The notes under the pieces are model-generated. The model was not told where the DNA came from. It ran no database searches and was given only the letters and a program-made list of their open reading frames with translations. The position numbers and the translations under genes are program-made. Below, piece after piece: positions 1,092 through 63,529 of a stretch of 64,000 bases of DNA. Origin of the DNA: an uncultured Bacteroidota bacterium (GTDB lineage: Bacteria > Bacteroidota > Bacteroidia > Bacteroidales > UBA12481); contig OW818688.1 in the NCBI GenBank assembly GCA_942493265.1, positions 2,121,467-2,185,466 on the forward strand, written 5' to 3'. Each line of letters begins with the position of its first letter. The first letter of the stretch is position 1.

Positions 1092-4000
1092 CTATTTCTT
1101 GTATAATCCTTTTGCGGTACGGTCTTCCAGTTTCGGTGCCGGGGTGATTTTTGGCGGTGCAACTTTTAACAGTTTCATCACTTCTTCCACCACTTTCTCC
1201 ATTTGCGGATCCCTTCCCTGAACCAGGATATTCGGGTCGTCCCATACCGGGAAATCGGGTGAAACGCCCACACCTTCCCAGAACCAGTGACCGTCATTGT
1301 CGTACAGTCGGGCATCCGGAACGGTAATATTGCCGCCATCTATCAGCGAGTGGCCGGTAGCCGGTCCCACCAGAATTCCCAGCGTGCGTTCCCCTACAAT
1401 CGGACCTGCCTTTAGCTCCTGGAATGCCCATGGCAAACCGTCGCCGCCCGATCCGGCCCAGCCGTTGATCAGCATACCTTTCGGACCGTTATTGGTTTTA
1501 ACGGGCTGGGTATGATCGCGGCCATGACGCCAGTGCAGGTTGTACACCACCGGCCGCTTCAGCAGCTCCAGAAACCTGTCGGCCAGGGCACCGCCGGCAT
1601 TGAACCGTTCATCGATGATGAATCCGTCTTTCTCCAGCTGGCCGTAAAACATCTTCACCAATTCAAGCTGACCTTGTGCGGAAGTATTTGACATATAGAT
1701 ATATCCGAGTTTGCCTCCGGATAGTTTATCTACCATTTTGCGGTTATTCTCGATCCATTCCAGATAACGGAGATTCGATTCTTCACCCCCGGTGAGGCAT
1801 TTAACCGTGATTTTCTCGCTATCTTCCACTTTACCTGTTTTACTCACCGTTAGCGCTACCGTTTTGCCCGATAAGCCCTCAAAGGGTGCATAAGGATCCA
1901 TTTTCGGATCCAGATTCACCCCGTTTACAGCCAGAATATAATCACCCACACCGGTTTTAACTCCCGGCAGGTCAAAGGGTGAACGTGCATCGGTATCCCA
2001 GGCTGCCGGGGTCACGATCCTTTTAATTTTATATAATCCGTTTTCCAGGGTCAGGTCGACACCCAGGAATCCCGACGACAAGGAACGAACACTTTCCAGA
2101 TCACCACCGGAGCTGTAGGTATGTCCGGCGGCCAGCTCCGATACCAGCTGCGACTGAATGGTATTGATATCCGAGCGGGTTCGGGCAAAATCCACCAATG
2201 AGCCATACCGGGTGCGCATTTCGTTCCAGTCAACACCCTGCATGTTGGGGTCATAGAAGAAATCGCGGTGACGGCGCCAGGTATCATTGAAAATCTGCTT
2301 CCACTCTTCACGCGGTACCAGGTCCATTACCAGGTCCCCTGTTGGAATGGCCTTTTCAATTTTCTGTGCGGCGGCAGGCTGAATAATGCCATATTTTCCC
2401 TGGCTCGAAACCAGCAATGATTTACCATCAGCCGTTACAATCACCCGTCCCACCTCGGAAATCACGGGTTTCTCCTCACGTGAAACCAAATCGTACACCA
2501 CCAGCGAGGAGGTACGGTCACCCGATCCGGTATTTGCGGAACGCAGGTAAACGATCTTCCCCTCAAAGGCTTTCACACCCCGGATGTTGCCGGCTTTTGC
2601 CGGAAGTATCACGGATCTGGATTCAATATTGTCGAAATCAACTTTGACCACCACCTTGGCAGTGTCCTTGGCAGCTTTCTTTTCTTCCAGCTCATCATTT
2701 TTTGCATATAAAAGCGACGGCGCATCTTTTGTGAGGCTGAGGGCCGCAATCTGGGTGGAATTCGGATAGATCCAGGTTCCGTCGTTGAGATCCGAATATT
2801 CGGCCGTCATATTGCGGTTGGTCAGATAAAACAGGTACTTGCCGTCGGTGCTGAATACCGGATCGTTGTCGTTGTAAAACCCGCTGGTAGCCTGCCGGCT
2901 TTTACCGGATTCCATTTCATAGATATAGAGTGCATTGTTGCCGTTTTCCAAGGCCTGGGTGAAAGTGATCCATTTTGAATCGGGCGACCACGAGATGGTG
3001 AATCCCGGGGCACCGCCATGACCCTGGGTATCCAGGGTATTGCCGATATTGACGGTTTTGCCGCTTTCAGCATCGATAACATATATAGTGTTCGTTTCAT
3101 CGATAAAGGCGATTTTTTTGCTGTCGGGCGACCAGTTCAGCGTGTACCCGTAACCTTTTCCCCGTTTCGAGAGTTTTTTCGGTCCTGATGCGTCGGCAAC
3201 AGCCTGCAGCCAGATCTCGAATTCCCCGTCGCGGTCGCTCCAGCAGGCAATGGTTTTTCCATCAGGCGACCACGAAGGATCACGGTCGAAGGCTCCGCTT
3301 GAATTGGTCAGGTTGATCACATAACCTTCGGTTGCCGGTACATTGAACAGCTCACCGCGGGCCTCGAAAATAATGCGCTTGCCTCCGGGGGAGGCGGTCA
3401 TATTGTTTATCTGCTGTCCAACATTTACCGAACGTGGCATTTCCACGGAAAGGTCGGATACCACATTGACCTCCACCGGCTTGTATTTTTGCGATGCCAG
3501 ATCCATCAGGTAAAGGGTGCCGCCTGCCTCAAAAACGATATCGGTTTTTCCGGCCGACATATGGGTGACGTCAAAATCCCTGATTTTAGTGATCTGACTG
3601 CTTTGCTTGCTTTTTGTATCGTATACCCAGATATTCAGACGCATATTTTCATCGCGATCCGACAGGAAATAGATCTTGTCACCCACCCAGGCAGGCTTTC
3701 CGTCGATAGCATCTGTTTTGGTAATGTTTTCTGCAGTATTGGCTTTCAGGTCAAACACGATGACATCCGAGGCCATCCCGCCGCGATATCTTTTAAACGG
3801 ATAATTCTCGGTAATGCGGGTTATATAGGCCAACTGATTCCCGTCGGGCGAGTAGCTTGCCAGGATGGCATACGGAACTTTCAGCTTCTCAGGGAATCCG
3901 CCGGTGGCGTCAACCAGATAGAGATTGGTCATAGCTCCGCGTCCGCTTTCCCGTGCCGATGAAAACAACAGCCGCTTCCCGTCGGGATGCCAGTCGACCA

Positions 4001-4337
4001 GCTGGTCGCCGAATGAGTGGTAGGTAACTCTCAACGGCAATCCGCCGTTTGAAGGGATCACAAAAACATCGGCATTCCCATTGTATAATGCAGTGTAAGC
4101 GATCGACCTTCCATCGGGCGAAAACCTCGGTGAGGATTCCTCTCCCGGGGAATGGGTAACCTGAATGGCGGTACCGCCGGTTTTGGGCATCACCCAGATA
4201 TCACCTCCATACACAAAAGTAATTTGATTATCAGATACATCCATGTATTTCATCAGCCTTGCGCTGATTTGTGCATCGGTTACCTGAACCATCAGAAGGG
4301 TAAGTGCTAAAAGAAATAGTTTTTTCATTTTTTTCAT
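1092..4337 (-). CDS. Tricorn-like S41 family protease, paralog 1 (TolB-like beta-propellers + PDZ-like + C-terminal peptidase)
   Basis: The 1103-aa track ORF is trimmed to MKKMKK at 4337, which directly precedes a signal peptide (LFLLALTLLMVQVTDAQ). It has repeated SPDG..IA(Y/F) propeller blades. The C-terminal core carries NGWAGSGGD, which resembles the tricorn nucleophile motif as I recall it. Confidence 0.85.
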   Translation of the reverse strand: MKKMKKLFLLALTLLMVQVTDAQISARLMKYMDVSDNQITFVYGGDIWVMPKTGGTAIQVTHSPGEESSPRFSPDGRSIAYTALYNGNADVFVIPSNGGLPLRVTYHSFGDQLVDWHPDGKRLLFSSARESGRGAMTNLYLVDATGGFPEKLKVPYAILASYSPDGNQLAYITRITENYPFKRYRGGMASDVIVFDLKANTAENITKTDAIDGKPAWVGDKIYFLSDRDENMRLNIWVYDTKSKQSSQITKIRDFDVTHMSAGKTDIVFEAGGTLYLMDLASQKYKPVEVNVVSDLSVEMPRSVNVGQQINNMTASPGGKRIIFEARGELFNVPATEGYVINLTNSSGAFDRDPSWSPDGKTIACWSDRDGEFEIWLQAVADASGPKKLSKRGKGYGYTLNWSPDSKKIAFIDETNTIYVIDAESGKTVNIGNTLDTQGHGGAPGFTISWSPDSKWITFTQALENGNNALYIYEMESGKSRQATSGFYNDNDPVFSTDGKYLFYLTNRNMTAEYSDLNDGTWIYPNSTQIAALSLTKDAPSLLYAKNDELEEKKAAKDTAKVVVKVDFDNIESRSVILPAKAGNIRGVKAFEGKIVYLRSANTGSGDRTSSLVVYDLVSREEKPVISEVGRVIVTADGKSLLVSSQGKYGIIQPAAAQKIEKAIPTGDLVMDLVPREEWKQIFNDTWRRHRDFFYDPNMQGVDWNEMRTRYGSLVDFARTRSDINTIQSQLVSELAAGHTYSSGGDLESVRSLSSGFLGVDLTLENGLYKIKRIVTPAAWDTDARSPFDLPGVKTGVGDYILAVNGVNLDPKMDPYAPFEGLSGKTVALTVSKTGKVEDSEKITVKCLTGGEESNLRYLEWIENNRKMVDKLSGGKLGYIYMSNTSAQGQLELVKMFYGQLEKDGFIIDERFNAGGALADRFLELLKRPVVYNLHWRHGRDHTQPVKTNNGPKGMLINGWAGSGGDGLPWAFQELKAGPIVGERTLGILVGPATGHSLIDGGNITVPDARLYDNDGHWFWEGVGVSPDFPVWDDPNILVQGRDPQMEKVVEEVMKLLKVAPPKITPAPKLEDRTAKGLYKK

Positions 4338-4523
4338 AAGGTTAGAGGGATAAAGATATTTGTTTTTATATCGGGAAATGAGCCATTTGTCAACCGGAAA
4401 CACACGGATGTAAACTGCATATCAATCAGTGTGATTGGGTTTTTGGTTTAACACCTGCAGGCTCCGGTTTGTTTAATTTTCAGAATAGTCAATTCGAATA
4501 CCATCATTCTGAATAACTTATGC

Positions 4524-28145: not shown

Positions 28146-28542
28146 ATGTCGATATCTTCATTGAATGTATATAATAGTAATATTCCTCCTTGGCCTATAT
28201 TTCTCAGAGAGCTTGAAAGCAGAGGTTACAACTATCAAGCATGACTTATTCGACAATATTTGCCCGAATTTCTTTGGCCTGAAAACTTTTTCCGGTAGAT
28301 TTTTGAAGATATTAAAAAAATTATGGGGCAAGACCATCTTGACAGCATAAAACAACGACCGCAGAGAAAAAACTATGTGTCAATTAGGGTTTCGGTGCGG
28401 AGAACAAAGCCCTAGCCCGCAACAACGGCATGGGGGTTCGAAAGGAAAGCAACCGCAATCCCCAACTGTAAATAGTTCAGAACGTTAGCAACAACCCAAT
28501 TTGAAGAGCCCAGAGAAAAACCCATATATAAACAACTTCATT

Positions 28543-30288
28543 ATGAGAAAAATAGCACTATTATTATTTGCCGTTTTGTTTTGCTATAAGTTTTATGGAC
28601 AGACAAATAAAGTGGATTATTCAAATGTTTTAGAAAAATATATTAAGGAAATTGAAACCACTTTAGAAAAAGGTTCTGCTAAAGCAATTTCATTTGCGTT
28701 AATTGATGGAAACAAAATAGTCTATTCTGGAAATTATGGTTATTCAGACTTTGAAGACAAAATAAAAGCGGATTCGAATACTGTATATGGAATTGGTTCA
28801 ATAAGCAAACTTTTTACAGCCTCCTCAGTTTTACAACTTCATGAGAAAGGAGTATTAAATATCGATTCTTCATTTACAAAATACTGTTCAAATTTTAGTA
28901 TTAAGCAAAAATTTCAAACAAACATTCAAATTACACCGAGAATGCTTATTTGTCACTATTCAGGTCTTCCGTCTGATATAACAAATGGCGCTTTTTCGAA
29001 AAAACCAAAGTATTTTAGCTCCGTTATTGAGTCGTTAGATAAAGAATATGCTCCTTCCCCACCAAATTATTATTATTCATATTCCAATATCGGATATTCT
29101 TTACTCGGGGTACTTATAGAAAAATCAACAGGTAAGAAGTACGAAGAATATGTTAAGCAAAATATTTTTGAACCTCTTGCGATGCATTCCGCAATTGTTG
29201 ATGGTGATAATTCTACGGTTTTACTTAAAGGCTACGATGAAAAAGGCAATCAAAGAGATGAATATGGTATTTGGCCCGTACCTGCAGGCGGAATAAAGTC
29301 AAACATAATTGATTTAGCAAAATTTGTAATGACTTTTCTTCCGGAATACGAAGGAGCAAAAATCCTTGAAACAATGACTATTAAAGAAATGCTTACCGTA
29401 CAAAACCAAAACATACCTTTAGACTTGGGAGAAAAGCATGGAATGCCATGGTTTTATGGGAATATAAATTCAGCAGGGCAAATTTATTATCACTCTGGCG
29501 GAACGATGAATCATAGAGGCGTGGTGATAATTGCACCAGAATCAAACCTTGCTATTGCACTCCTCTCAAATTCTGTTAATGTTGGGCGTTTTCATAGGTT
29601 GTCTATAAACCTGCTTGATAGTTGTGCCAAATTAAAAGGCAAAACAATTGACTTGAAAAACACCAAAGAATTCGCTGAAATAGATACCGTTACGCTCTCA
29701 AATAATGAACTTATTAAATTTATTGGGCTATATGCTCATCCTTCATTTGTTTTCGAAATCTTTACAAAGGGTAACCAATTATACACAAAAATTCAAAATA
29801 CTGGCTATTTACTAAAACCGTTAAAGGACGGTTCGTTTGTTCCACAAATTATAACTTCAGACGGTTCTCCTCAAATTGTGAAAAATTTACGGTTTGAATT
29901 TTCGAACATTGAAGGAAACTATGTATTAATTTTTAACAACATAGAAATTCAGAGTAAGCAAATACTTGGCACCAAGTTCTATCGTCAAGAAATTGATAGT
30001 TTATGGCATAATAGATTAGGGCAATATGAAATATTAGATAAAAATGAAAACGACCATTTGTTTCTATCATATTTCGAACTAACTATTGAAAATGGAGTGT
30101 TGGTATTTAACCAAATGGAAGACTATGAAGGAAAAGAAAAATGGCAAACAGCAATAGAAGTTATTAATAAAAATACTGCATTTTCAATTGGAATAGGTCG
30201 TCACAGAGGAACAACATTATTATTTGAAACTGAAAATGGTAATGAAATCCTATGGTTTTCAGGATACAAACTTAAACTAATTCAATAA
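28543..30288 (+). CDS. Serine hydrolase of the beta-lactamase/transpeptidase-like (class C / esterase) superfamily
   Basis: Start trimmed to MRKIALLLFAVLFCYKFYGQ. It has SxxK (GSISKLFT), YxN (YSYSNIGYSLLG) and an H/KxG-like third motif (YHSGGT). Confidence 0.8.
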   Translation: MRKIALLLFAVLFCYKFYGQTNKVDYSNVLEKYIKEIETTLEKGSAKAISFALIDGNKIVYSGNYGYSDFEDKIKADSNTVYGIGSISKLFTASSVLQLHEKGVLNIDSSFTKYCSNFSIKQKFQTNIQITPRMLICHYSGLPSDITNGAFSKKPKYFSSVIESLDKEYAPSPPNYYYSYSNIGYSLLGVLIEKSTGKKYEEYVKQNIFEPLAMHSAIVDGDNSTVLLKGYDEKGNQRDEYGIWPVPAGGIKSNIIDLAKFVMTFLPEYEGAKILETMTIKEMLTVQNQNIPLDLGEKHGMPWFYGNINSAGQIYYHSGGTMNHRGVVIIAPESNLAIALLSNSVNVGRFHRLSINLLDSCAKLKGKTIDLKNTKEFAEIDTVTLSNNELIKFIGLYAHPSFVFEIFTKGNQLYTKIQNTGYLLKPLKDGSFVPQIITSDGSPQIVKNLRFEFSNIEGNYVLIFNNIEIQSKQILGTKFYRQEIDSLWHNRLGQYEILDKNENDHLFLSYFELTIENGVLVFNQMEDYEGKEKWQTAIEVINKNTAFSIGIGRHRGTTLLFETENGNEILWFSGYKLKLIQ

Positions 30289-30533
30289 ATTGACTGAGAA
30301 TTTTACTCAGAAAATAAATGGGCAATTGCTAACATCATAAATATAATGTTGGGAATTAAGTGGTTATATTGAAGTTTCTGTCCCGCAGAAACTTTGTAAC
30401 GGCAGACAAGGATGTCTCCCGCAGCCCCAATATTTCATATACTTTTAATCTGTAAACTATGAAAGCAACAAGATTCAGTGAGACCCACCCCTCGCGAATA
30501 TTTTGGCAAATCATAGGTAACAAGGAATAGAAA

Positions 30534-31052
30534 ATGAATGAATCGTATGCTGAAGAAATATGTCATAACCAAATAAAAACAATGGAATACAAAAAAGATT
30601 TATTAAAAAATAATGCAAAATCTATTTTTCGGTTAATACTGGGAATTTTCTTTTGCGTGACTTCAATATTGTGGATCATTGCAAGATTGGCTGATAATGA
30701 ATTAATCAGACTTTTTGACTGGTTCTATTCCGGAATTTTTACATTAATCGGGTTGGGTCATATATTTTCAGGACTTGGTATTTCAGTAGAGGGTTTTTTT
30801 GGAAAGGCATTCGTTCATATCGACAATGAAATGGTCGACTTTAAACTTGGAGTTTTCGAAAAGGAATACAAGATTAATTGGCAAGAAATTAAATCAATTG
30901 ACTGTAAATCAGGTGACTTTACAATTCAAAAGCTCGACAACTCATCTGTATTTTTACCAGTATCAAAACTTGGTTATTCAACAGTAACCGGCATCAAGGA
31001 TATTATGTCCAAATTGGCTGAGAGCAGGGATATTAGTTGTCATATTCATTAG
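30534..31052 (+). CDS. Hypothetical membrane protein (2 TM + small C-terminal domain)
   Basis: 172-aa ORF in AT-rich DNA with hydrophobic segments (IFRLILGIFFCVTSILWII and FYSGIFTLIGLGHIFSGLGI). The true start may be the internal MEYKK. Confidence 0.5.
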   Translation: MNESYAEEICHNQIKTMEYKKDLLKNNAKSIFRLILGIFFCVTSILWIIARLADNELIRLFDWFYSGIFTLIGLGHIFSGLGISVEGFFGKAFVHIDNEMVDFKLGVFEKEYKINWQEIKSIDCKSGDFTIQKLDNSSVFLPVSKLGYSTVTGIKDIMSKLAESRDISCHIH

Positions 31053-31140
31053 TATTACAAACTCCACCCAACGCTCAACATTTTCCTGCTTCTGATGTAT
31101 TATCTTCATCAGATTAATTCATTTTAACGATACCGATGCC

Positions 31141-31563
31141 ATGGCCGAACTGAAAACAAAATTAACAGCTGCAAGTGTGACCGAATTCATTAACACAGTT
31201 GCCGATAGCAAACAAAGGCGTCAGGATAGTTTTGAGCTGCTCAAACTGATGCAGGATTTTACCGGCTTCGAACCTAAAATGTGGGGTGCCTCGATCATCG
31301 GATTCGGAAGCTACCACTACAAATCGGAACGTAGCACCCAGCAGGGCGATTGGCCGCTGGTGGGCTTTTCACCCCGAAAAGCAGCCATTTCCCTGTATGT
31401 GTACATGGGCACACCGGAGCATGAACATCTGCTGGCTGACCTGGGGAAATTTAAGATGGGCAAAGCTTGCATCTACATCAAAAAATTGTCGGATATCAAT
31501 CAGGATGCCCTCAAAAAAATCATGAGCGCCACCATCGACTATCTCCAAACCAGGTATAAGTAG
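31141..31563 (+). CDS. DUF1801 (YdhG-like) domain protein, second paralog
   Basis: 140 aa with the pattern EPKMWG.SIIGFG.YHYK......G.WP..GFSPRK..ISLY, typical of DUF1801. Confidence 0.7.
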   Translation: MAELKTKLTAASVTEFINTVADSKQRRQDSFELLKLMQDFTGFEPKMWGASIIGFGSYHYKSERSTQQGDWPLVGFSPRKAAISLYVYMGTPEHEHLLADLGKFKMGKACIYIKKLSDINQDALKKIMSATIDYLQTRYK

Positions 31564-31569
31564 CGAAAA

Positions 31570-31627
31570 TTAAAAAAATCCGCGCCAATCCGCGTTGCGC
31601 AGTATCCGCGTAAATCCGCGTGCCAAT
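31570..31627. repeat. Left arm of a ~57-bp inverted repeat (four ATCCGCG heptads)
   Basis: The arm is TTAAAAAAATCCGCGCCAATCCGCGTTGCGCAGTATCCGCGTAAATCCGCGTGCCAAT. The reverse complement of 33745-33801 differs at 4 positions plus one A indel. Confidence 0.85.
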
Positions 31628-31649
31628 CTTAATTCCCATGCAGGCTTCC

Positions 31650-33734
31650 CTATCTCACCACCGGAAATGAACTGATTCTCAATCGTGCCGCTCCCATCGG
31701 CACCAGCTCGACTTTCACCTCAGGCTGATTGGATACCACCGGACTATCCGTTAGCTCCCCGCAAAGTTTATATTTATCCAATGTCCATTCAGGAATCTGT
31801 TTGGCCTTAACTTCTATGCTAACAGGTACTTCCGATAGGGTAAACGGAAAGTTGGACTCCGGCCACGGTGAAAATTTCACCTTGAAGGATTTCAACGGAT
31901 CGGTTTTATCCAGTACCAATCCGTAATTCCAGTCCGATCCCGGATGGATCTCCCAGGCTTTCCACTGGGTTTGATCAACCCCCTCCTGCCATTTTGAATC
32001 CCACACCGCGGTTTTATCCCCGGGTTTATTGATGTAATTTTCTTTGATCTTTAATGAAAAGGTGAGCGGACCGTAGTTAACACTCACCGATTTGTGGTTC
32101 TTTTCCCAGGTGGTCAACCCCAGCTGCATCGGCAGCAACAGCTCCACCTGATCGCCTGTTTTCCAGGTGCGCATGATCCGGATATTTCCGCCGGCAACTG
32201 CTTTAGCGGCAAATGGTTGTCCGTTCAGCCTGACTTTTGCCCCCTTGCACCATTTCGGTATCCTCAGGTAGAGTGGAAATTCTTCGGACTTATCCATTTT
32301 TACCTCAAAACGGATGATGGAATCGAACGGATAATGGGTGGTTTCGGCAATTTGGGCGGTAGCACCAGTGCCGACTTTAACTTTTACGGTGTTCTCACAG
32401 TAAAGAGAGGCGAATACTCCATTGTCGGGCGTTGCCAGCCACAGATTTTCAGCATAATAGGGCCATCCCTGAGAATGATTATGCTGGCAGCAACGACTGC
32501 TGAAGGGATTCATCATCAGGAAAGGACCGCTGTTGGCGATTCCGGGTGCGTGATTCTGATCGTCACACAGCACCATGTTGGGTGCCGTCAGGTACCGGAG
32601 AGCCCTGAAATCGGGCATTACGGCTGCGGGATACGTGTTGAAGGCAACATTCTCGGTATGATCGGCCCAGAAGTTGTCGCCGGTGATGCAAAGCAGGTTT
32701 TCATTGGAGTTCATCTGTTCCACGATGGCGCAGGTTTCAATGGCCTGCCGTGGATCATCATAGCCGGCACGTGCATTCTCATCGGCCCCGTACATGCCGC
32801 CCGGAACCTGTCCGAAATGCTCCCTGATAATCCTGAACACTTCATACGAAGCTTCTGTATCATCCGGATTATGGCTCAGCAACGAATAGGTGGCCGGCTC
32901 GCGAAATCCCTGGGCAATGTTCACATTATGCCAGTCGGGCAGGAGCGACCACCATTCGGGATTCTTTTTCTCCCCTTCACCGGGTTCAGTAAACTCGGTA
33001 TATCTTGATTTCCAGTTCTTACCGCACCGATGAATCTTTTCGCCCAACTCCAGCAACGAGGCATCGCCGGTACGGTTATACAGCCAGATCACACTGTACA
33101 GGTTATCGCCCGTGCGCAATCCCTGCCAGTACCCTTTCATGAAGTCTTCATCGGGTACCGTAAGCTGATATTTGAAATACCGGCTCATGAAACCAATGAT
33201 CCGGGGATCGGCGGTAAACTCATAATAGGATTGCAAACAGTACAGCATGATCATGTTGGGCCAGAAATCCTGCTTGCCGCGATCGAGGTTGTGCGGACCG
33301 AAATCCCCGTTTTCACGCTGGCTTTTCAATGCCGCTTCGATCCAGATCCTGGCTTCAGCCATCATTTTCTCATCTTTCAGGATATAAGCCAGATCGCCGT
33401 ATCCCTTGAGCCAATAAGGAACTTCTTCCCAGCCCCATTTGCCGGTGCCATCAGCCGACAGCCAGGCATTGTCGGTTTTTTGCAGCCAGGCGCTGATGTT
33501 GCCGAGCTGTCCGGTTAAACCATCGCGCTGCTTGTCGAGATAAACTTTCAGCCACCCGCCGGGTTCGATGCTGCCTACCGGGAGCCTGATGTATTTACTT
33601 TCCATCAGGGGCTTAAGGTTTCCGGAGTAGTGGGAATTGCCGGTTTTCAGTTTGGTGATATCCGGTTGGGCTACGAGGGAGAGGGTTTGGGAGAGGAAGA
33701 GGAGGGCTAGCAGGAGGGTGATGTTTTTTTTCAT
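31650..33734 (-). CDS. DUF1680 / GH127-like glycoside hydrolase (beta-L-arabinofuranosidase-like)
   Basis: Start trimmed to MKKNITLLLALLFLSQTLSLVAQ (ATG at 33734). It has an (alpha/alpha)6-type N-terminal half (EVPYWLKGYGDLAYILKD...) and a Cys pair in SSRCCQHNHSQGW, reminiscent of the GH127 Cys-rich metal/catalytic site. The family call is from memory. Confidence 0.6.
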   Translation of the reverse strand: MKKNITLLLALLFLSQTLSLVAQPDITKLKTGNSHYSGNLKPLMESKYIRLPVGSIEPGGWLKVYLDKQRDGLTGQLGNISAWLQKTDNAWLSADGTGKWGWEEVPYWLKGYGDLAYILKDEKMMAEARIWIEAALKSQRENGDFGPHNLDRGKQDFWPNMIMLYCLQSYYEFTADPRIIGFMSRYFKYQLTVPDEDFMKGYWQGLRTGDNLYSVIWLYNRTGDASLLELGEKIHRCGKNWKSRYTEFTEPGEGEKKNPEWWSLLPDWHNVNIAQGFREPATYSLLSHNPDDTEASYEVFRIIREHFGQVPGGMYGADENARAGYDDPRQAIETCAIVEQMNSNENLLCITGDNFWADHTENVAFNTYPAAVMPDFRALRYLTAPNMVLCDDQNHAPGIANSGPFLMMNPFSSRCCQHNHSQGWPYYAENLWLATPDNGVFASLYCENTVKVKVGTGATAQIAETTHYPFDSIIRFEVKMDKSEEFPLYLRIPKWCKGAKVRLNGQPFAAKAVAGGNIRIMRTWKTGDQVELLLPMQLGLTTWEKNHKSVSVNYGPLTFSLKIKENYINKPGDKTAVWDSKWQEGVDQTQWKAWEIHPGSDWNYGLVLDKTDPLKSFKVKFSPWPESNFPFTLSEVPVSIEVKAKQIPEWTLDKYKLCGELTDSPVVSNQPEVKVELVPMGAARLRISSFPVVR

Positions 33735-33744
33735 GGAGATATTT

Positions 33745-33801
33745 ATTGGCACGCGGATTTTCGCAGATGCTGCGCAACGCGGATTAGCGCGGATTTTTTA
33801 A
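33745..33801. repeat. Right arm of the ~57-bp inverted repeat
   Basis: The arm is ATTGGCACGCGGATTTTCGCAGATGCTGCGCAACGCGGATTAGCGCGGATTTTTTAA. It begins 11 bp upstream of the glycosidase start codon. Confidence 0.85.
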
Positions 33802-33834
33802 TGTTGGGGTGCTAAATAGTAAGAAGTAAGTGTT

Positions 33835-34398
33835 TTATGGGGTAATGGGTGCTGAACCCGCATCTGTCAGGGTTTCTATTTCCGGAGCATTGGAGTATGT
33901 TTGAGATTCATTATGTAGGTTGATATCAGCCATAGGATATATTCCGGTAATAAACTGTTTTTGAAAGAGTGAACCCTTAAGATGGCCGTCCTTTTGGTTA
34001 AGTGGCATGCTGATCACCTTAACCGCAATCGGGTCCGTGGGAAAAATCGGTCCGGTAAGTTTGCCGGTTATCACGTAATCAGAAAAGAGATTTAATTTGC
34101 GGCTTAGCGATCCTCTGTTCTTTTTCATCTGGCAGCCATCAAATACCGCTGTTCCAAGTTTTCCGGTAACTGTTCCATCTTCGGAAATGGTTATCGATAG
34201 TTTTACAGAATCCGGGTTACGGGTAAAGTGGAACCGACCCTGTTCAAAAGTCCGCACCGTAACAATTGGTATTCCGGTCCAGTTCCCCTGTAAAGTCTCA
34301 GGGATCAGTCGTTTGGAGAATACTGAAGAGAAGGAAGAGCCAATTATTGTAAGCAGTACCAATCCGGCAACCAGGAGATATCTGTTTTTGGATTTCAT
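33835..34398 (-). CDS. Hypothetical secreted protein (187 aa)
   Basis: It has a signal peptide (YLLVAGLVLLTIIGSSFSSVFS). No family recognised. Confidence 0.5.
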   Translation of the reverse strand: MKSKNRYLLVAGLVLLTIIGSSFSSVFSKRLIPETLQGNWTGIPIVTVRTFEQGRFHFTRNPDSVKLSITISEDGTVTGKLGTAVFDGCQMKKNRGSLSRKLNLFSDYVITGKLTGPIFPTDPIAVKVISMPLNQKDGHLKGSLFQKQFITGIYPMADINLHNESQTYSNAPEIETLTDAGSAPITP

Positions 34399-34450
34399 CA
34401 GGAATTTGGAATTGTTGATGTTTTCACCTTCAGTTAAGATTATTCTGTGG

Positions 34451-35026
34451 TTAGCCGGCTATCTTTCCCCGTCTTTTTAATTCCCAGAAACATTTTGCCG
34501 TGATGGCGATGTCAACGGATGCATCATGGGCCTCATCGAATTCATATTCAAATAGTTTGTAATGCAGTTCCGCGAGCTTGGGCCATTTTAATCCATACGG
34601 ACCGGGTATGGCGCAATAGTTTGTGGTTCCCTTCATGGTGCAGATCTGCCTTTTATAGGGGATGGGATTTTCCATTCCGGCCCTCAGGAATTCAGCACCT
34701 GCGATTTTTTCATCAAAACTGATGTTGTGGGCTACAAGGACTTCCGAATCATAGATCAGGGTGTTAAAGTGCTCTAAAACATCGGTCACTGGCTCCCCTT
34801 CGCGGAGTGCCCGTTCGGTGGTGATTCCATGGATCTGGGCAACATCATCGGGAATGATAAAGCCTTCAGGTTTAATGATATAGTTTCCGGCGGTGATTTT
34901 GTTGCCATCCTGGTCATACATCAGAAACGCAAGCTGAACCATTCGAGGCCAGTTGTTTACATCGCTCACGGGAGCTTTCCAGTCGCGGGGTAATCCCGTT
35001 GTTTCGGTATCAAAGAATAGATACAT
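34451..35026 (-). CDS. DEDDh 3'-5' exonuclease (DnaQ/epsilon-like domain)
   Basis: Exo I (FFDTETTGLP), Exo II (LVAHNISFDEKI) and Exo III (AHDASVDIAITAKCF) are all present. Confidence 0.85.
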   Translation of the reverse strand: MYLFFDTETTGLPRDWKAPVSDVNNWPRMVQLAFLMYDQDGNKITAGNYIIKPEGFIIPDDVAQIHGITTERALREGEPVTDVLEHFNTLIYDSEVLVAHNISFDEKIAGAEFLRAGMENPIPYKRQICTMKGTTNYCAIPGPYGLKWPKLAELHYKLFEYEFDEAHDASVDIAITAKCFWELKRRGKIAG

Positions 35027-35143
35027 GGTTGTTCAGTGTTTTTTCATTCTTCCAACAATGGCGGCAAGTTACAAAAACCGGATTGGTTATTGCCATCTGA
35101 ATGGTACTGATTCCCTTGCCCATCTGCCTGAAAATTCGTTCCT

Positions 35144-36751
35144 TTGCAAACAATTTTTCAGAATATTTTGAACCAGGACGAAATCAGCAGACGGCGAACA
35201 TTTGGGATTATCAGTCACCCCGATGCCGGAAAAACCACCCTAACCGAAAAAATCCTTTTATTCGGCGGAGCCATTAAAACAGCCGGTGCTGTTAAGATGA
35301 ACAAGATCAGTAAAACCGCGACTTCGGATTTCATGGAAATCGAGAAACAGCGCGGGATATCCGTGGCTACATCGGTCATGGGGTTTGAGTACGACGGATT
35401 TAAAATCAATATCCTCGATACGCCCGGTCATAAGGATTTTGCCGAGGATACTTACCGCACGCTTACCGCCGTCGACAGTGTAATCCTGGTGGTGGATTGT
35501 GTGAAAGGGGTGGAGGAGCAAACGCGTAAACTCATGGAAGTTTGCCGGATGCGGCATACCCCGGTGATCATATTTATCAACAAACTCGATCGCGAGGGTA
35601 TCGATCCGTATGATTTACTGCACATTATCGAGAAGGAGCTGAGCATTCATACCCGGCCGCTCACCTGGCCCATCGGAATGGGTGCCGGATTTAAGGGCGT
35701 TTACAATCTGTTTACCAAGCATCTGCTGTTGTTTACCCCGCACATGACCAAGATCTCCGACGATAACTTTGCGATCGATGATCTGGCTAGTGTGGAACTC
35801 GATAAGCGGGTAGGGGCCGATTCTGCCAACCATCTCCGCAAGGATATCGAGCTGATCGAAAGTGCCTACGAACCTTTCGACAAGGATCTGTACAGCGAGG
35901 GCTATCTGGCTCCGGTATTTTTTGGCAGTGCCATCAACAACTTCGGGGTCAAGGAATTGCTGGATACTTTTATCTCAATTGCCCCGCCGCCTTTGCCTCG
36001 GTTTACTGAAACCCGCGAAGTGAAACCGGAGGAGAATGATTTTTCCGGTTTCGTATTTAAGATCCATGCCAATATCGATCCCAAGCATCGCGACCGCATC
36101 GCTTTCTGCCGCATTGTATCGGGAAAGTTTGAACGTAATAAGTTTTTCTATCATACCCGTCTCGATAAGAAATTGCGCTTTTCGAGTCCCACCAGTTTCA
36201 TGGCCAATGAAAAAAGCATCGTGGAAGAGGCTTTCCCGGGTGATGTAGTGGGTTTATATGATACCGGAAATTTCAAGATCGGCGATACCCTCACCGAAGG
36301 CGAAAGTCTTTTCTTTAAAGGCATTCCGAGCTTTTCCCCTGAGATTTTCAAGGAGCTTATCAATAAGGATCCCTTTAAAACGAAACAGCTTGAAAAGGGT
36401 GTGAGGCAGCTCTCCGATGAGGGTGTGGCCCAGCTGTTTATCCGCCAGCCGGGTAATGTTAAAATTATCGGAACTGTTGGGGAGCTTCAGTTCGAGGTGA
36501 TCCAGTTCCGCCTGCTTCATGAGTACGGGGCTTCCTGCATCTTTCAGCCGATGCGGCTGTACAAGGCTTTCTGGGTGACTTCAAAAGATAAGACTCAGCT
36601 CAATAAATTACTGAATATCAACGGACAGCACATTACCTACGACAAAGATGACCGTCCGGTTTTCATGGCCGAAAGTGAATGGCATTTCAAGGTAACCCGG
36701 GAGGTATATCCGGCGTTGGTATTCCATAGCACGTCGGAATACCGGGGATGA
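35144..36751 (+). CDS. prfC: Peptide chain release factor 3
   Basis: 535 aa with the GTPase G1 motif in the RF3 context ([29 protein letters not shown]), plus DTPGHKDF and NKLDR. The start is a TTG and is therefore uncertain by a few codons. Confidence 0.9.
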
Positions 36752-60292: not shown

Positions 60293-63200
60293 ATGAAATC
60301 GCTCCTCCTCCCCCTCCTCCTCCTCTTCACCACCGTTTCCGCTACCACCTCCCCCTTCTCTGTCATCCCCGCGGAGGCGGGGACCGTCCTCCCCGCGGCA
60401 GCAAGTACTGTCCTCCCCGCGGAACCGGGGACCTACTTCCTCTCCTCCCCGGCGCTCTCCCCCGACGCTAAAACGATTGTTTTCAGCTTCGAAAGCGATC
60501 TCTGGAAAGCAGATATCGCTACCGGAAATGCCACCCGGCTAACCGCCATGCAGGGATACGAATCCAGTGCACGCTTTTCGCCCGATGGAAAATGGATCGC
60601 CTTCACCGGCCGCCAGTTCGGCAATGGGGATGTGTTTGTAATTCCGATGGAGGGTGGTGAAATCCGTCAGCTTACCTGGCACTCGGCCAACGACGATGTG
60701 GAAAACTGGAGCTGGGATTCGAAGTCAATCTATTTTACCTCAGGCCGGCTGAACAGCGGCACGGTTTATAAAGTCGCGCTTGAGGGAGGTAATCCGGTCC
60801 GGCTGTTTGAACATTATTTCAATACCATCCATAATCTCGCTGAAAATCCCAAAACCGGTGAACTGTTTTTTAATGATACCTGGGAGAGCCAGAGTATGGC
60901 CAGCCGCAAAAGGTACAAGGGCGATTATAATCCGGATATCCAGTCGTACAACCCGAAAACTGGTGATTATAAGAAGTATACCGAATGGATCGGAAAAGAT
61001 ATGTGGGCCACCATCGATCAGGGTGGCACCATTTATTTTATATCAGATGAGAAAAACGGGGAATACAACCTATGTAAACTCGAAAATGGCAAAACCAAAA
61101 ACCTGACTTCTTATAAAACTTCCATCAAGCGCCCGATCGTATCGGCCGACGGATCAATGGTGATCTTCGAAAAAGATTATCAGTTGTTTACCTATGAACC
61201 CGCATCTGATAAAACGGTCAAATTGTCGATCCGCATCAATCGGAACAGCATTCTTCCCAAAGAGCAAAATTTTGCTACTCTGAACAAAATCAGTGATTAC
61301 GATGTGTCGCCCGATAACAAGAAGATAGCCTTTATTTCACGCGGCGAACTCTTCGTGTGCGATATCGACGGCAAATATATCGTGTCAATGTTCCCCGCCT
61401 CCTCCCCTTCCTCTCCCGCCAATTCCTTCGAGCGTGTGATGAGCATTAAGTGGCTGGCCGACAATAAAACCCTCCTGTTTAATCAAACCTGGAACGGTTA
61501 CCTGAATTGGTTTACCCTGTCGGCCGACGGCACCGGCGAACCGAAGCAACTGACTACTGATAAAGCGAATAACCGGGATATCGTTCTCAACAAGGACCTG
61601 ACTAAAGCAGTCTATATCAATGGACGGGATGAACTCCGGCTGATGGACCTCAAGACTATGGAAAGCAAATTGCTGCTGAAGGATGAGTTCTGGGGATTTC
61701 AAAATGGTGAGCCTGGTTTTTCGCCTGATGGTGAGTATGTTATCTATACGGCCAAACGAAATTTTGAAGATGAAATTTTTGTATACCATCTGAAAAGTGG
61801 TGTGATCACAAACCTTACGGGTACCGGTGTGGCTGAATCCAGTCCGGTTTGGAGCGGCGATGGAAAGTATATCTATTTTTCCACCAACCGCACCCAGCCA
61901 ACCTATCCAACCGGCGGCGGCGCTTCGCATATTTACCGGTTTGCCCTGGATAGAATCGATGCACCCTTCCGCACCGATGAATTCGATAAGTTATGGAAAA
62001 AAGAGGTTGTGGCGGCAAAGGATCCCGCTGCGAAAAAAGATTCCACGGCAGCTAAGAAAGATACCATTGCACCCATCTCGATCAATACCGACCGCATTTG
62101 GGAACGCTTTGAACTGATCAGTCCGGGATTTGGCTCGCAGGGCGGTCCATTTGTAATCCAGAAAGGGGATAAAACCACCGTTTTATACTATTCCAATCAT
62201 GCTATGGGAGCCGGTGCACTGTGGAAAACGGTTCTTTCCCCATGGGATCCGCCTAAAACTGAGAAGATTGAGGGAGCTGCTCCGGGCAGTATCGTTAAAG
62301 CCGACGATAAGTTTTATATGTTGTCGGGCGGAATCATCTATAAACTGAATGTTGACGGAAACAAGGCAGATAAGATCGATATTGCCAACTTCAATTTTAC
62401 CCGAAACCTTGCCGATGAGTTCCGGCAGATGTTTGAAGAAACCTGGGCAAATATGGAGGGGGATTATTATCATGAAAAATTGCACGGTGCCGATTGGCTT
62501 GCCTATAAGTCTTATTATCAGCAGTTTTTACCCTATCTGAATAACCGGAATGATTTGCGCGTGCTGATGTCGGATATGCTCGGCGAACTGAATTCATCCC
62601 ATCAGGGATTCAACAGCTATGGTGAAGAGGAAGCGGGACGGCTGAATTACACTACACTGGAAACCGGAATCCTGTATGAGGAATCGGCTCCTTTTACCGT
62701 GAAAAGGATTGTTGCCCGAAGCGCTGTGGACCGCTCCACCATTGATATCCAACCCGGAGATGTGCTGGTGAAAGTGAATGGTGAGACGGTCAATCCGGCC
62801 ACCCCGCGTGATTTTTATTTTTACCGGCCGGCAATGGAGCCCGAAATGGTGCTCACCTTCAAACGGAAAGGGGTTGACCGGGATGTGAAAATTCATCCGA
62901 TGGCTTATCAAACCCTTAACCGCAATCTGTATGATGAATGGGTCGACGGCAACCGGGAGCGGGTGAATGAGCTGAGTAAGAACAGGATAGCTTATGCCCA
63001 AATGAAGGACATGGGGGGTGGGGAACTGGAGAATTTCCTGATGACCATGACCCGCGATCTGGCGGGCAAGGATGGCCTGATCCTCGACCTGCGCTTTAAT
63101 ACCGGCGGTAATGTGCATGATGAGGTACTGCGGTTCCTCTCGCAGAGAACTTATCTTCAATGGAAATCACGCGGAGGCAAACTGGCGAATCAGTCGAATT

Positions 63201-63529
63201 TTGCCCCCTCGGATAAGCCGATCGTTCTGCTGATCAATGAGCAATCACTCAGTGATGCCGAAATGACTTCTGCCGGATTCAAGGCCTTGAAACTGGGTAC
63301 CATTATCGGAACCGAAACCTACCGGTGGATAATCTTTACTTCAGGCAAAGGCCTGGTGGATGGTTCATCGTACCGTTTGCCCGGTTGGGGTTGTTACACG
63401 CTGGATGGTGAGGATCTGGAAGTTACCGGGGTGAAACCTGATATCTACATTAAAAATACCTTCCTCGACCGGCTAAATGGCCGCGATCCGCAGCTGACCA
63501 AAGCGGTTGATGTTATTTTGAAGAAGTAG
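60293..63529 (+). CDS. Tricorn-like S41 family protease, paralog 2
   Basis: 1078 aa with the same architecture as paralog 1 (ARFSPDGKWIAFTG, FSPDGEYVIYTA blades; PDZ-like; S41 core with INEQSLSDAEMT). The N-terminus is a signal peptide followed by a repeat-derived linker. Confidence 0.85.
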   Translation: MKSLLLPLLLLFTTVSATTSPFSVIPAEAGTVLPAAASTVLPAEPGTYFLSSPALSPDAKTIVFSFESDLWKADIATGNATRLTAMQGYESSARFSPDGKWIAFTGRQFGNGDVFVIPMEGGEIRQLTWHSANDDVENWSWDSKSIYFTSGRLNSGTVYKVALEGGNPVRLFEHYFNTIHNLAENPKTGELFFNDTWESQSMASRKRYKGDYNPDIQSYNPKTGDYKKYTEWIGKDMWATIDQGGTIYFISDEKNGEYNLCKLENGKTKNLTSYKTSIKRPIVSADGSMVIFEKDYQLFTYEPASDKTVKLSIRINRNSILPKEQNFATLNKISDYDVSPDNKKIAFISRGELFVCDIDGKYIVSMFPASSPSSPANSFERVMSIKWLADNKTLLFNQTWNGYLNWFTLSADGTGEPKQLTTDKANNRDIVLNKDLTKAVYINGRDELRLMDLKTMESKLLLKDEFWGFQNGEPGFSPDGEYVIYTAKRNFEDEIFVYHLKSGVITNLTGTGVAESSPVWSGDGKYIYFSTNRTQPTYPTGGGASHIYRFALDRIDAPFRTDEFDKLWKKEVVAAKDPAAKKDSTAAKKDTIAPISINTDRIWERFELISPGFGSQGGPFVIQKGDKTTVLYYSNHAMGAGALWKTVLSPWDPPKTEKIEGAAPGSIVKADDKFYMLSGGIIYKLNVDGNKADKIDIANFNFTRNLADEFRQMFEETWANMEGDYYHEKLHGADWLAYKSYYQQFLPYLNNRNDLRVLMSDMLGELNSSHQGFNSYGEEEAGRLNYTTLETGILYEESAPFTVKRIVARSAVDRSTIDIQPGDVLVKVNGETVNPATPRDFYFYRPAMEPEMVLTFKRKGVDRDVKIHPMAYQTLNRNLYDEWVDGNRERVNELSKNRIAYAQMKDMGGGELENFLMTMTRDLAGKDGLILDLRFNTGGNVHDEVLRFLSQRTYLQWKSRGGKLANQSNFAPSDKPIVLLINEQSLSDAEMTSAGFKALKLGTIIGTETYRWIIFTSGKGLVDGSSYRLPGWGCYTLDGEDLEVTGVKPDIYIKNTFLDRLNGRDPQLTKAVDVILKK
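60351..60433. repeat. Family A variant element lying in-frame inside the protease coding sequence
   Basis: CCCCCTTCTCTGTCATCCCCGCGGAGGCGGGGACCGTCCTCCCCGCGGCAGCAAGTACTGTCCTCCCCGCGGAACCGGGGACC encodes SPFSVIPAEAGTVLPAAASTVLPAEPGT. The first 34 nt match the reverse complement of 27338-27382. Confidence 0.8.

Follow-up and report, generated by a model that had tools for sequence, protein, structure and literature searches.

How does a single glycosidase gene come to lie exactly between the two arms of an inverted repeat? The question is raised by a 64-kb stretch of DNA from an uncultured Bacteroidota bacterium (lineage UBA12481, contig OW818688.1), referred to here as the window, in which a gene of glycoside hydrolase family 127 (GH127) is bracketed by two arms with a core of ~57 nt. 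[quoted passage not shown] The explanation favoured here, which we consider rather probable, is that the arms are two old, individually constrained units resembling repetitive extragenic palindromic (REP) sequences, and that they serve as punctuation 5' and 3' of the resident GH127 gene. It is carried by the observations that both arms belong to a repeat family with intergenic copies, that GH127 keeps an ancestral position and orientation, that relatives have copies or relics of the unit at the flanks of this gene, and that the unit is conserved. The parts of the bracket are listed below.

31570..31627, plus strand: left arm, one family unit in the 'R' orientation (nhmmer E 8e-16)
31572-31578, plus strand: A-run of the left arm
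31578, 31588, 31604 and 31614, plus strand: the ATCCGCG heptads of the left arm
31620-31627, plus strand: tail of the left arm, GTGCCAAT
31628..31640, plus strand: weak inward extension of the left arm, CTTAATTCCCATG, in which 7/13 positions match the extension of the right arm
31650..33734, minus strand: gene for a GH127-family glycoside hydrolase (beta-L-arabinofuranosidase-like), 694 aa (PF07944 2.3e-46, PF20736 4.1e-22)
33732..33744, minus strand: weak inward extension of the right arm, AAATATCTCCATG, holding a 10-nt spacer and the GH127 start codon
33745..33802, minus strand: right arm, one family unit in the 'R' orientation on this strand, pointing into the GH127 start (nhmmer E 1.3e-15)
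33788-33794, 33778-33784, 33762-33768 and 33752-33758, minus strand: heptads of the right arm, that at 33762-33768 being the variant ATCTGCG

The presence of inverted-repeat arms around a single glycosidase gene was confirmed. On the plus strand, positions 31572-31627 of the left arm read AAAAAAATCCGCGCCAATCCGCGTTGCGCAGTATCCGCGTAAATCCGCGTGCCAAT, and the reverse complement of 33745-33800 in the right arm reads AAAAAATCCGCGCTAATCCGCGTTGCGCAGCATCTGCGAAAATCCGCGTGCCAAT. A repeat search returned the arms as an ungapped inverted repeat of 68 nt (31573-31640 / 33732-33799) that is 85% complementary, and in a gapped alignment of the ~57-nt core 51/57 positions are identical (89-90%). The exact blocks shared by the arms measure 13, 16 and 16 nt, the longest identical run being 16 nt, with four substitutions, and the heptads are spaced 10/16/10 from start to start in both. 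Some details of the earlier note needed adjustment. Its four substitutions stand; what it took for an A indel is just as compatible with a substitution at the A-run's edge. Four exact ATCCGCG heptads were found in the left arm as it had stated, but the right arm has three exact copies and one ATCTGCG. The right arm does lie close upstream of the start codon, at a spacing of 10 nt. The arms also lie in both gaps of the GH127-like gene, as described there, and they are the only two copies in 64 kb: no third copy was found in the window by the exact core, by an nhmmer profile of the unit (arms E ~1e-15, next match E 0.95) or by a two-heptad pattern with 2 mismatches. ATCCGCG itself occurs 19 times in the window, compared with 8.0 +/- 2.8 expected.

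Both arms face the gene with their tails. The left arm lies 8 nt past the stop codon of a DUF1801 gene and its tail is 22 nt from the GH127 stop codon; the tail of the right arm, ATTGGCAC, begins at 33745, 10 nt from the GH127 ATG, and this arm is located ~34 nt beyond the stop codon of a gene for a 187-aa protein. Both outer boundaries are sharp, at the A-run. The matched positions of the inward extensions include CCATG, which on the right arm holds the GH127 ATG, and the match between the extensions is possibly a matter of chance. A single arm folded as RNA gave no significant structure on either strand (z ~ -1), and promoter and terminator scans gave no signal inside the arms. There are no sigma-70-like or TAnnTTTG boxes in or beside the arms, and none of the TAnnTTTG type on the gene strand over 33735-35144; this motif is unenriched window-wide (43 vs 46 expected), so its absence is uninformative.

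Comparison with other genomes placed the arms in a repeat family. In the unit of ~55 nt an A-run 'head' is followed by four ATCCGCG-type heptads at 10/16/10 spacing and by a GT(G/T)CC 'tail'; in the subfamily searched, the variable middle between the heptads reads TTGCGCAGCATC. The pattern ACGCGGATNNNNGCGGAT, allowing 2 mismatches, would serve to find copies, and the compared loci carry L-numbers as labels. Exact arm cores of 23 nt and 20 nt recur in one Saprospiraceae metagenome-assembled genome (MAG) and one Bacteroidota MAG. Among 24 metagenome matches to the cores, 16 contigs contain real family units, the remainder lying in heptad-less sequence, and heptad patterns also retrieve IMG/VR contigs that encode terminase and are therefore phages. 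As read from the family alignment, ~2 positions set each window arm apart from the cross-taxon consensus, and the arms are 90% identical to each other as against at most 83% to any other family copy found. The GTGCCAAT tail is a subfamily feature, also present in L002 and L022.

Units occur solo with the identical A-run head (L012, L018, L040, L042, L047), in tandem arrays (L011, L022, L028, L042) and as head-to-head dimers. The dimer, L.R, has the form GGCACGCGGAT...GGATTTTTT|AAAAAATCC...ATCCGCGTGCC, and such dimers fold into near-perfect hairpins of 100-120 nt with z-scores of -10 to -15 (L001, L008, L017 and L020 together: z -5 to -15). The tips read GGAACGC...GCGTTCC or GGCACGC...GCGTGCC. 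In the usual dimer L is followed by R with the tails outward, and the GG(A/C)ACGCGG tips of the hairpin lie outside; in the window the layout is R - gene - L, with the heads outward and the tails inward, so that such tips face the gene. Derivation of this layout from an upstream L.R dimer by a single inversion was considered and rejected, as it would yield direct repeats.

All of the detected copies in the loci and the window (46/46) are intergenic, many of them at 2-50 nt from the start or stop codon of a gene. Beside them stand unrelated genes of housekeeping, restriction-modification, toxin-antitoxin and phage types, among them those for aldehyde dehydrogenase, DPP-IV, type I restriction-modification subunits, M28 peptidase, isocitrate dehydrogenase and SAICAR synthetase. 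A Pfam survey of 47 adjoining open reading frames (ORFs) found no recurrent enzyme beside the copies; it did yield two SLFN_AlbA_2 proteins and, at 1.2 kb from an array, a single Transposase_29 gene. No gene for a REP-associated tyrosine transposase (RAYT) occurs among these 47 ORFs or in the window, the survey reaching these regions only. Inspection of the dimers in L001, L008 and L017 gave no evident target-site duplication. Rfam returned nothing at the gathering threshold in the window, and at relaxed E-values the dimers gave only generic noise of the miRNA-precursor hairpin type. INPHARED phages and PLSDB plasmids gave just chance matches of 21-24 nt. In the papers searched on repeats of the REPIN (REP doublet forming a hairpin), RAYT and MITE types the family is not described, and a motif-based literature search led to primers only. 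The family, apparently undescribed so far, is an extragenic repeat akin in kind to REP, to bacterial interspersed mosaic elements (BIMEs), to REPINs or to MITEs.

Local rearrangements of family copies were also seen. In L002 (1434-1690) and L022 (3430-3712) whole dimers are repeated in tandem together with the spacers between them, at periods of 131 and 147 bp. The duplicated block in L002 covers the start-codon region of the type I restriction-modification gene hsdS, and a further element follows the hsdS stop codon, so that hsdS is bracketed too. In L027 (304-405) a unit is split between its third heptad and its tail by a small GC-rich hairpin, TCCCCGCGAAAGCGGGGA, as though another small repeat had inserted itself into the unit.

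The history of the bracket was read from orthologue loci (68 kb), which were picked through the GH127 protein only. The order Methyltransf_32 - prfC - variable stretch - GH127 is common to the window, L003 and L030/L031, in the same relative orientation. GH127 is divergent from prfC in all three lineages, and the RF3 of L003 is 92% identical. Since this linkage is conserved and the GC content of GH127 equals the local level (48-52%), GH127 is resident and was not imported by the repeats. Since the orientation is the same in L003 and L030/L031, the assembled state of the window matches that of its relatives. The genes on both outer sides of GH127 vary among the relatives. Within the orthologue loci, family matches with E<1 adjoin GH127 solely, at the following places.

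L030, 5832-5915 (L030-32): degenerate L.R dimer, ~85 nt upstream of GH127
L043, 3313-3381: unit ending GCGTGCCAAT, 26 nt upstream of GH127
L054, 2399-2427: two-heptad L-type tip, 3 nt past the GH127 stop codon

A decayed upstream relic in L053 (..CATCATCTGCATACCAAT..), which was missed by nhmmer, aligns with the element of L043. No family unit was found at the GH127 flanks of L003, L005 and L033. The orthologues that do carry units mostly have one each, upstream only in L030, L043 and L053 and downstream only in L054, and the carriers occur in both GH127 sub-clades. These comparisons suggest that units on the GH127 flanks probably predate the divergence of the compared GH127 lineages, and that the right arm of the window is likely orthologous to the elements of L043, L030 and L053.

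In L030 (5700-5830, also in L031 and L032) the plus strand just upstream of the element encodes ...PLGGIGTGTVSLGG..., which looks like a truncated glycosidase N-terminus cut off at the element, and at a distance of 2.5 kb prfC and GH127 have an IS1595 transposase gene between them. In L043 (3258-3407) the GH127 orthologue, P0004, has been called 50 codons too far, through the element, giving the peptide ...WRTRFARIKKIRENLRSFGIRV...; repeat-encoded peptide words of this type could help to follow the family through protein databases.

The same comparison bears on the reading that an abundant dispersed repeat was inserted twice, independently and by chance, into adjoining gaps. The family is indeed dispersed in other Bacteroidota and often occupies adjacent gaps, as seen for an M28 peptidase gene between two dimers in L008, for hsdS in L002 and for small ORFs in L028. 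The earlier note was right about a dispersed repeat, since the arms belong to a family of Bacteroidota and phages, but chance is unlikely. There are zero further copies in the remaining ~62 kb of the window or in the 68 kb of orthologue loci away from GH127, and relatives have copies or relics at the same flanks. Such a very low background, together with the recurrent occupancy of GH127 flanks, argues for an old association and makes two chance insertions very unlikely.

To what extent the units are conserved was assessed against fourfold-degenerate sites of GH127. Between the window and its relatives these sites show 40-48% identity, and between L030 and L043 they show 56%. The upstream units of the latter two loci reach 88% identity, compared with 56% at fourfold-degenerate sites (P ~3e-7), and the right arm of the window is 74% identical to the L043 unit, compared with 42% (P ~7e-7). 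The upstream unit is conserved well above the synonymous-site level. The units are either individually constrained or renewed from other family copies, and under either of these the 90% identity of the arms needs no exchange between them.

The favoured explanation can be stated on this basis. The arms are single units, oriented opposite to each other, of a family of Bacteroidota and phages that resembles REP/BIME or MITE sequences, and they face the GH127 start and stop codons with their tails. Each would be individually constrained and would thus stay near the common consensus; other family copies may be an alternative source of this uniformity. By analogy with REP/BIME sequences, the four phased heptads would most likely serve as a binding array for a trans-acting protein. 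The 90% identity of the arms would then reflect shared constraint rather than frequent exchange or inversion, and for GH127 the units would be passive punctuation, neither a phase-variation switch nor a gene vehicle.

A comparable bracket exists in phage contigs. In L042 and L041 a tails-in pair of solo units surrounds an unrelated gene of 178 aa; one unit precedes the ATG by 11-15 nt, and an inverted unit follows the stop codon at a distance of ~40-46 nt. The upstream copy in L041 is decayed and the downstream copy intact. In L047 a one-heptad relic only is found upstream of the homologous gene, and in L045 no unit was detected beside the homologue (179 aa). The units of L041, L042 and L047 are interleaved with at least 2 other repeat types (e.g., L042 6950-7400), namely a hairpin CCCCTCTCAAGAGGGG with conserved flanks and a motif TGCTTCGTGCCTCGCAATGAC, and these composite arrays of ~140-180 nt lie upstream of phage genes. 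Between repeat arrays of L047 stands a 277-aa gene (1380-2213) whose N-terminal domain is of the AbiJ type (PF18863, 3e-36). No comparable ORF stands between the arrays and the 178-aa gene in L041/L042, and the AbiJ-domain gene has the look of a gain or a loss at repeat-rich junctions.

GH127 and the phage 178-aa gene both begin directly after a unit, and their first codons, ATGAAAAAAAACATCACCCT (33711-33734, minus strand) and ATGAAAAACATCACCCT (L042 8400-8422), are near-identical save for AAA. The likeness of these first codons (ATGAAAAA..CATCACCCT) was judged coincidental, reflecting an MKK-type N-terminus, since the phage N-terminus is conserved as protein and the GH127 orthologues have ordinary MKK signal peptides.

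The phage pairs bring in the reading that the bracket is functional, the upstream unit and the inverted downstream unit acting as a pair on GH127. In one version the arms would base-pair in a transcript spanning GH127, closing the mRNA or making an RNase III site; in another, looping of the DNA by a protein that binds the two heptad arrays would insulate or regulate a single-gene transcription unit. Co-transcribed arms could form a duplex of ~55 bp, with a predicted energy of -101.7 kcal/mol, the tails-in arrangement of L042 and L041 is identical, and both arms are near the family consensus in a unit conserved above the neutral level. However, as read from the arm sequences, only two of the four mismatches could form G-U pairs, and the other two would disrupt the duplex. 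A partner is not required, as most unit-bearing GH127 orthologues have one unit, and the two copies do not co-vary in L041, nor is there a unit at the L045 homologue. A functional bracket is thus considered unlikely. Little credence is likewise given to its general form, in which the tails-in pair, with one four-heptad unit directed at the start codon and an inverted one closely following the stop codon, is a selected gene-bracketing module recurring in Bacteroidota chromosomes and phages, with a dedicated protein or RNA pairing recognising both ends. If it were true, such a module would insulate, invert or exchange a single gene and would be a new cis-element instead of inert REP-like DNA.

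Several points weigh against two individually constrained REP-like units as the explanation. The phage pair at the 178-aa gene may be a sign of the pair forming an independent unit, and is treated here as a coincidence. Constraint is not universal, as the decayed element of L053 illustrates. The presence of the GTGCCAAT tail in L002 and L022 makes repeated insertion at the same place possible. In the source genome just two copies are known, within 64 kb, and the regions surveyed yielded neither a trans-acting protein nor a parent insertion sequence or RAYT gene.

Inversion of the segment is the next reading to be weighed. A distant recombinase or rare homologous recombination would flip 31628-33744, and GH127 would come to lie behind the DUF1801 gene instead of the 187-aa gene. 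Bacteroides is known to have global invertases acting on distant sites, Mpi being an example. The flanking inverted repeat is long (51/57 identical), and gene conversion during inversion could explain why the arms are nearer to each other than to other copies. Frequent exchange, on the other hand, should have homogenised the arms, which keep four substitutions; being perfectly identical over at most 16 nt, they offer little length for RecA-dependent exchange. The assembled orientation is that of two other lineages. The segment holds a whole gene and not a promoter; as both arms are the same unit, either state would place an identical upstream sequence and a co-oriented gene before GH127, with no obvious OFF state. 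Most unit-bearing relatives have just one unit, and the family consists mostly of solo units, arrays and hairpin dimers, which define no invertible segments. Invertase genes are enriched near invertons (PMC11892184), and the earlier note had suggested looking for an invertase nearby or at a distance; the Pfam scan of window ORFs gave no recombinase, integrase or transposase domain. The ON/OFF switch is unsupported by the available tests, and inversion of any kind appears distinctly improbable. This tempting inverton candidate is probably no switch, and inverted-repeat scans in Bacteroidota will keep meeting the family.

A further reading makes R-GH127-L a mobile single-gene cassette, either a moron-like unit or a composite element, bounded at the A-run heads. 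A circle made of the gene and an L.R palindrome, opened at the palindrome centre, would give R-gene-L, and circularising the segment recreates the exact standard L.R hairpin dimer. The sharp outer boundaries at the A-run, the second R-gene-L example in phages L042 and L041, and the differing outer genes on both GH127 sides among relatives also fit this reading. In T4-type phages, repeats that flank single genes, called PeSLs (promoter early stem-loops), are reported to mediate gene shuffling (PMC2839356, PMC4122927). Simple recombination between inverted repeats, however, cannot excise a circle, and the units, on reading their sequences, are without integron attC core sites. Conserved linkage and orientation of prfC and GH127 in three lineages and native GC argue against a recent arrival. 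A target-site duplication is lacking, as GCGAAAATT and AATGTTGGGG, the flanks on the outer sides, have no direct repeat in common beyond A/T bases, and the window ORFs scanned contain no integrase or transposase. A MITE pair mobilising the gene is contradicted by this linkage, by the lack of a target-site duplication and by the inward tails, and a mobile module in general is the least probable of the readings considered. Two old REP-like units beside a resident gene remain the explanation preferred here, and the repeat family itself is the more interesting by-product, being widespread, apparently undescribed, phage-shared and conserved above the neutral level.

The gene and its surroundings in the window have the following features. 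GH127 begins with a signal-peptide-like N-terminus, MKKNITLLLALLFLSQ; it has thousands of homologues, many named GH127 or beta-L-arabinofuranosidase, and the best of these outside the source genome is 82% identical. Its neighbours are:

31141..31563, plus strand: DUF1801 gene, left outer neighbour, convergent with GH127
33835..34398, minus strand: gene for a 187-aa protein with a signal-peptide-like N-terminus, right outer neighbour, co-oriented with GH127

The 187-aa protein has no Pfam or NCBIfam match. The possibility that the two DUF1801 genes are duplicates of each other was rejected, because they do not align. A stretch of low GC content at 28200-31200 (30-36% vs 45-52% around it) encodes a 595-aa protein of beta-lactamase fold (PF00144) and a 172-aa ORF without Pfam match. 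It is probably a horizontally acquired island and ends one gene, DUF1801, before the left arm. Two large tricorn-like proteases with PD40 repeats, Tricorn C1/PDZ and Peptidase_S41 domains are encoded on opposite strands at 1092-4403 and 60293-63529, one near each end of the window.

Among known systems, the invertons of Bacteroidota come to mind first. A typical inverton is a short segment that bears a promoter. The window resembles reported invertons of this phylum in that an inverted-repeat pair brackets a segment at a glycan-utilisation gene (PMC11892184, PMC11602134). It differs from them in that the segment is a whole gene of 2.1 kb, the repeats belong to a dispersed family, no invertase is nearby and the orientation is that of relatives. 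Masking of the family would improve inverton and MITE predictions in Bacteroidota.

The PeSL cassettes of T4-type phages offer a second parallel. PeSLs stand in direct orientation, which permits excision, while the units of the window are inverted, and scans of the arms gave neither a promoter nor a terminator signal. PeSLs are reported to be promoter-plus-terminator motifs (PMC4122927), conserved repeats that flank single genes (PMC2839356, PMC4122927). Family copies likewise flank single genes in Bacteroidota phage contigs, where the neighbouring genes vary between relatives. As for integrons, the R''/R' core sites of attC (RYYYAAC ... GTTRRRY) are absent from the units, and no integrase occurs among the scanned window ORFs.

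Bacterial MITEs, including Correia and ERIC elements and the MITEs of Bacteroidota and viruses (PMC10969869, PMC11602168), are resembled more closely. The dimers of 100-120 nt are similar to elements that are nearly all terminal inverted repeat, presence, absence and decay differ among related phages (L041, L042, L045, L047), and the family is common to cellular and viral contigs. Unlike for MITEs, no target-site duplication or parent insertion sequence was found at the copies inspected and in the regions surveyed, and unlike in a gene-carrying transposon, the window copies are single half-units with their tips inward.

The REP, BIME and REPIN sequences of Proteobacteria differ from the family in several features. 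The family unit of ~55 nt is non-palindromic, with four direct heptads and an A-run; it has no GTAG or CGTC tag (PMC3733652), beginning instead with the A-run and ending in GT(G/T)CC. Its hosts are Bacteroidota and their phages, and no RAYT was found in the neighbouring ORFs or the window. The likenesses are nevertheless extensive. As in the family, REP, BIME and REPIN sequences are short and extragenic, occur as single units or as inverted doublets that form hairpins, and are strictly intergenic, often near stop codons, in either orientation and sometimes clustered (PMC3116915, PMC3733652). The occurrence of the family across several Bacteroidota lineages and phages, with conservation far above the synonymous level at one orthologous site, points to a trans-acting partner, and identifying this partner would clarify the upkeep of REP-like DNA outside Proteobacteria. 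In the proteobacterial sequences, too, copies persist at orthologous sites, where they are thought to be constrained by protein binding (PMC3116915, PMC3733652).

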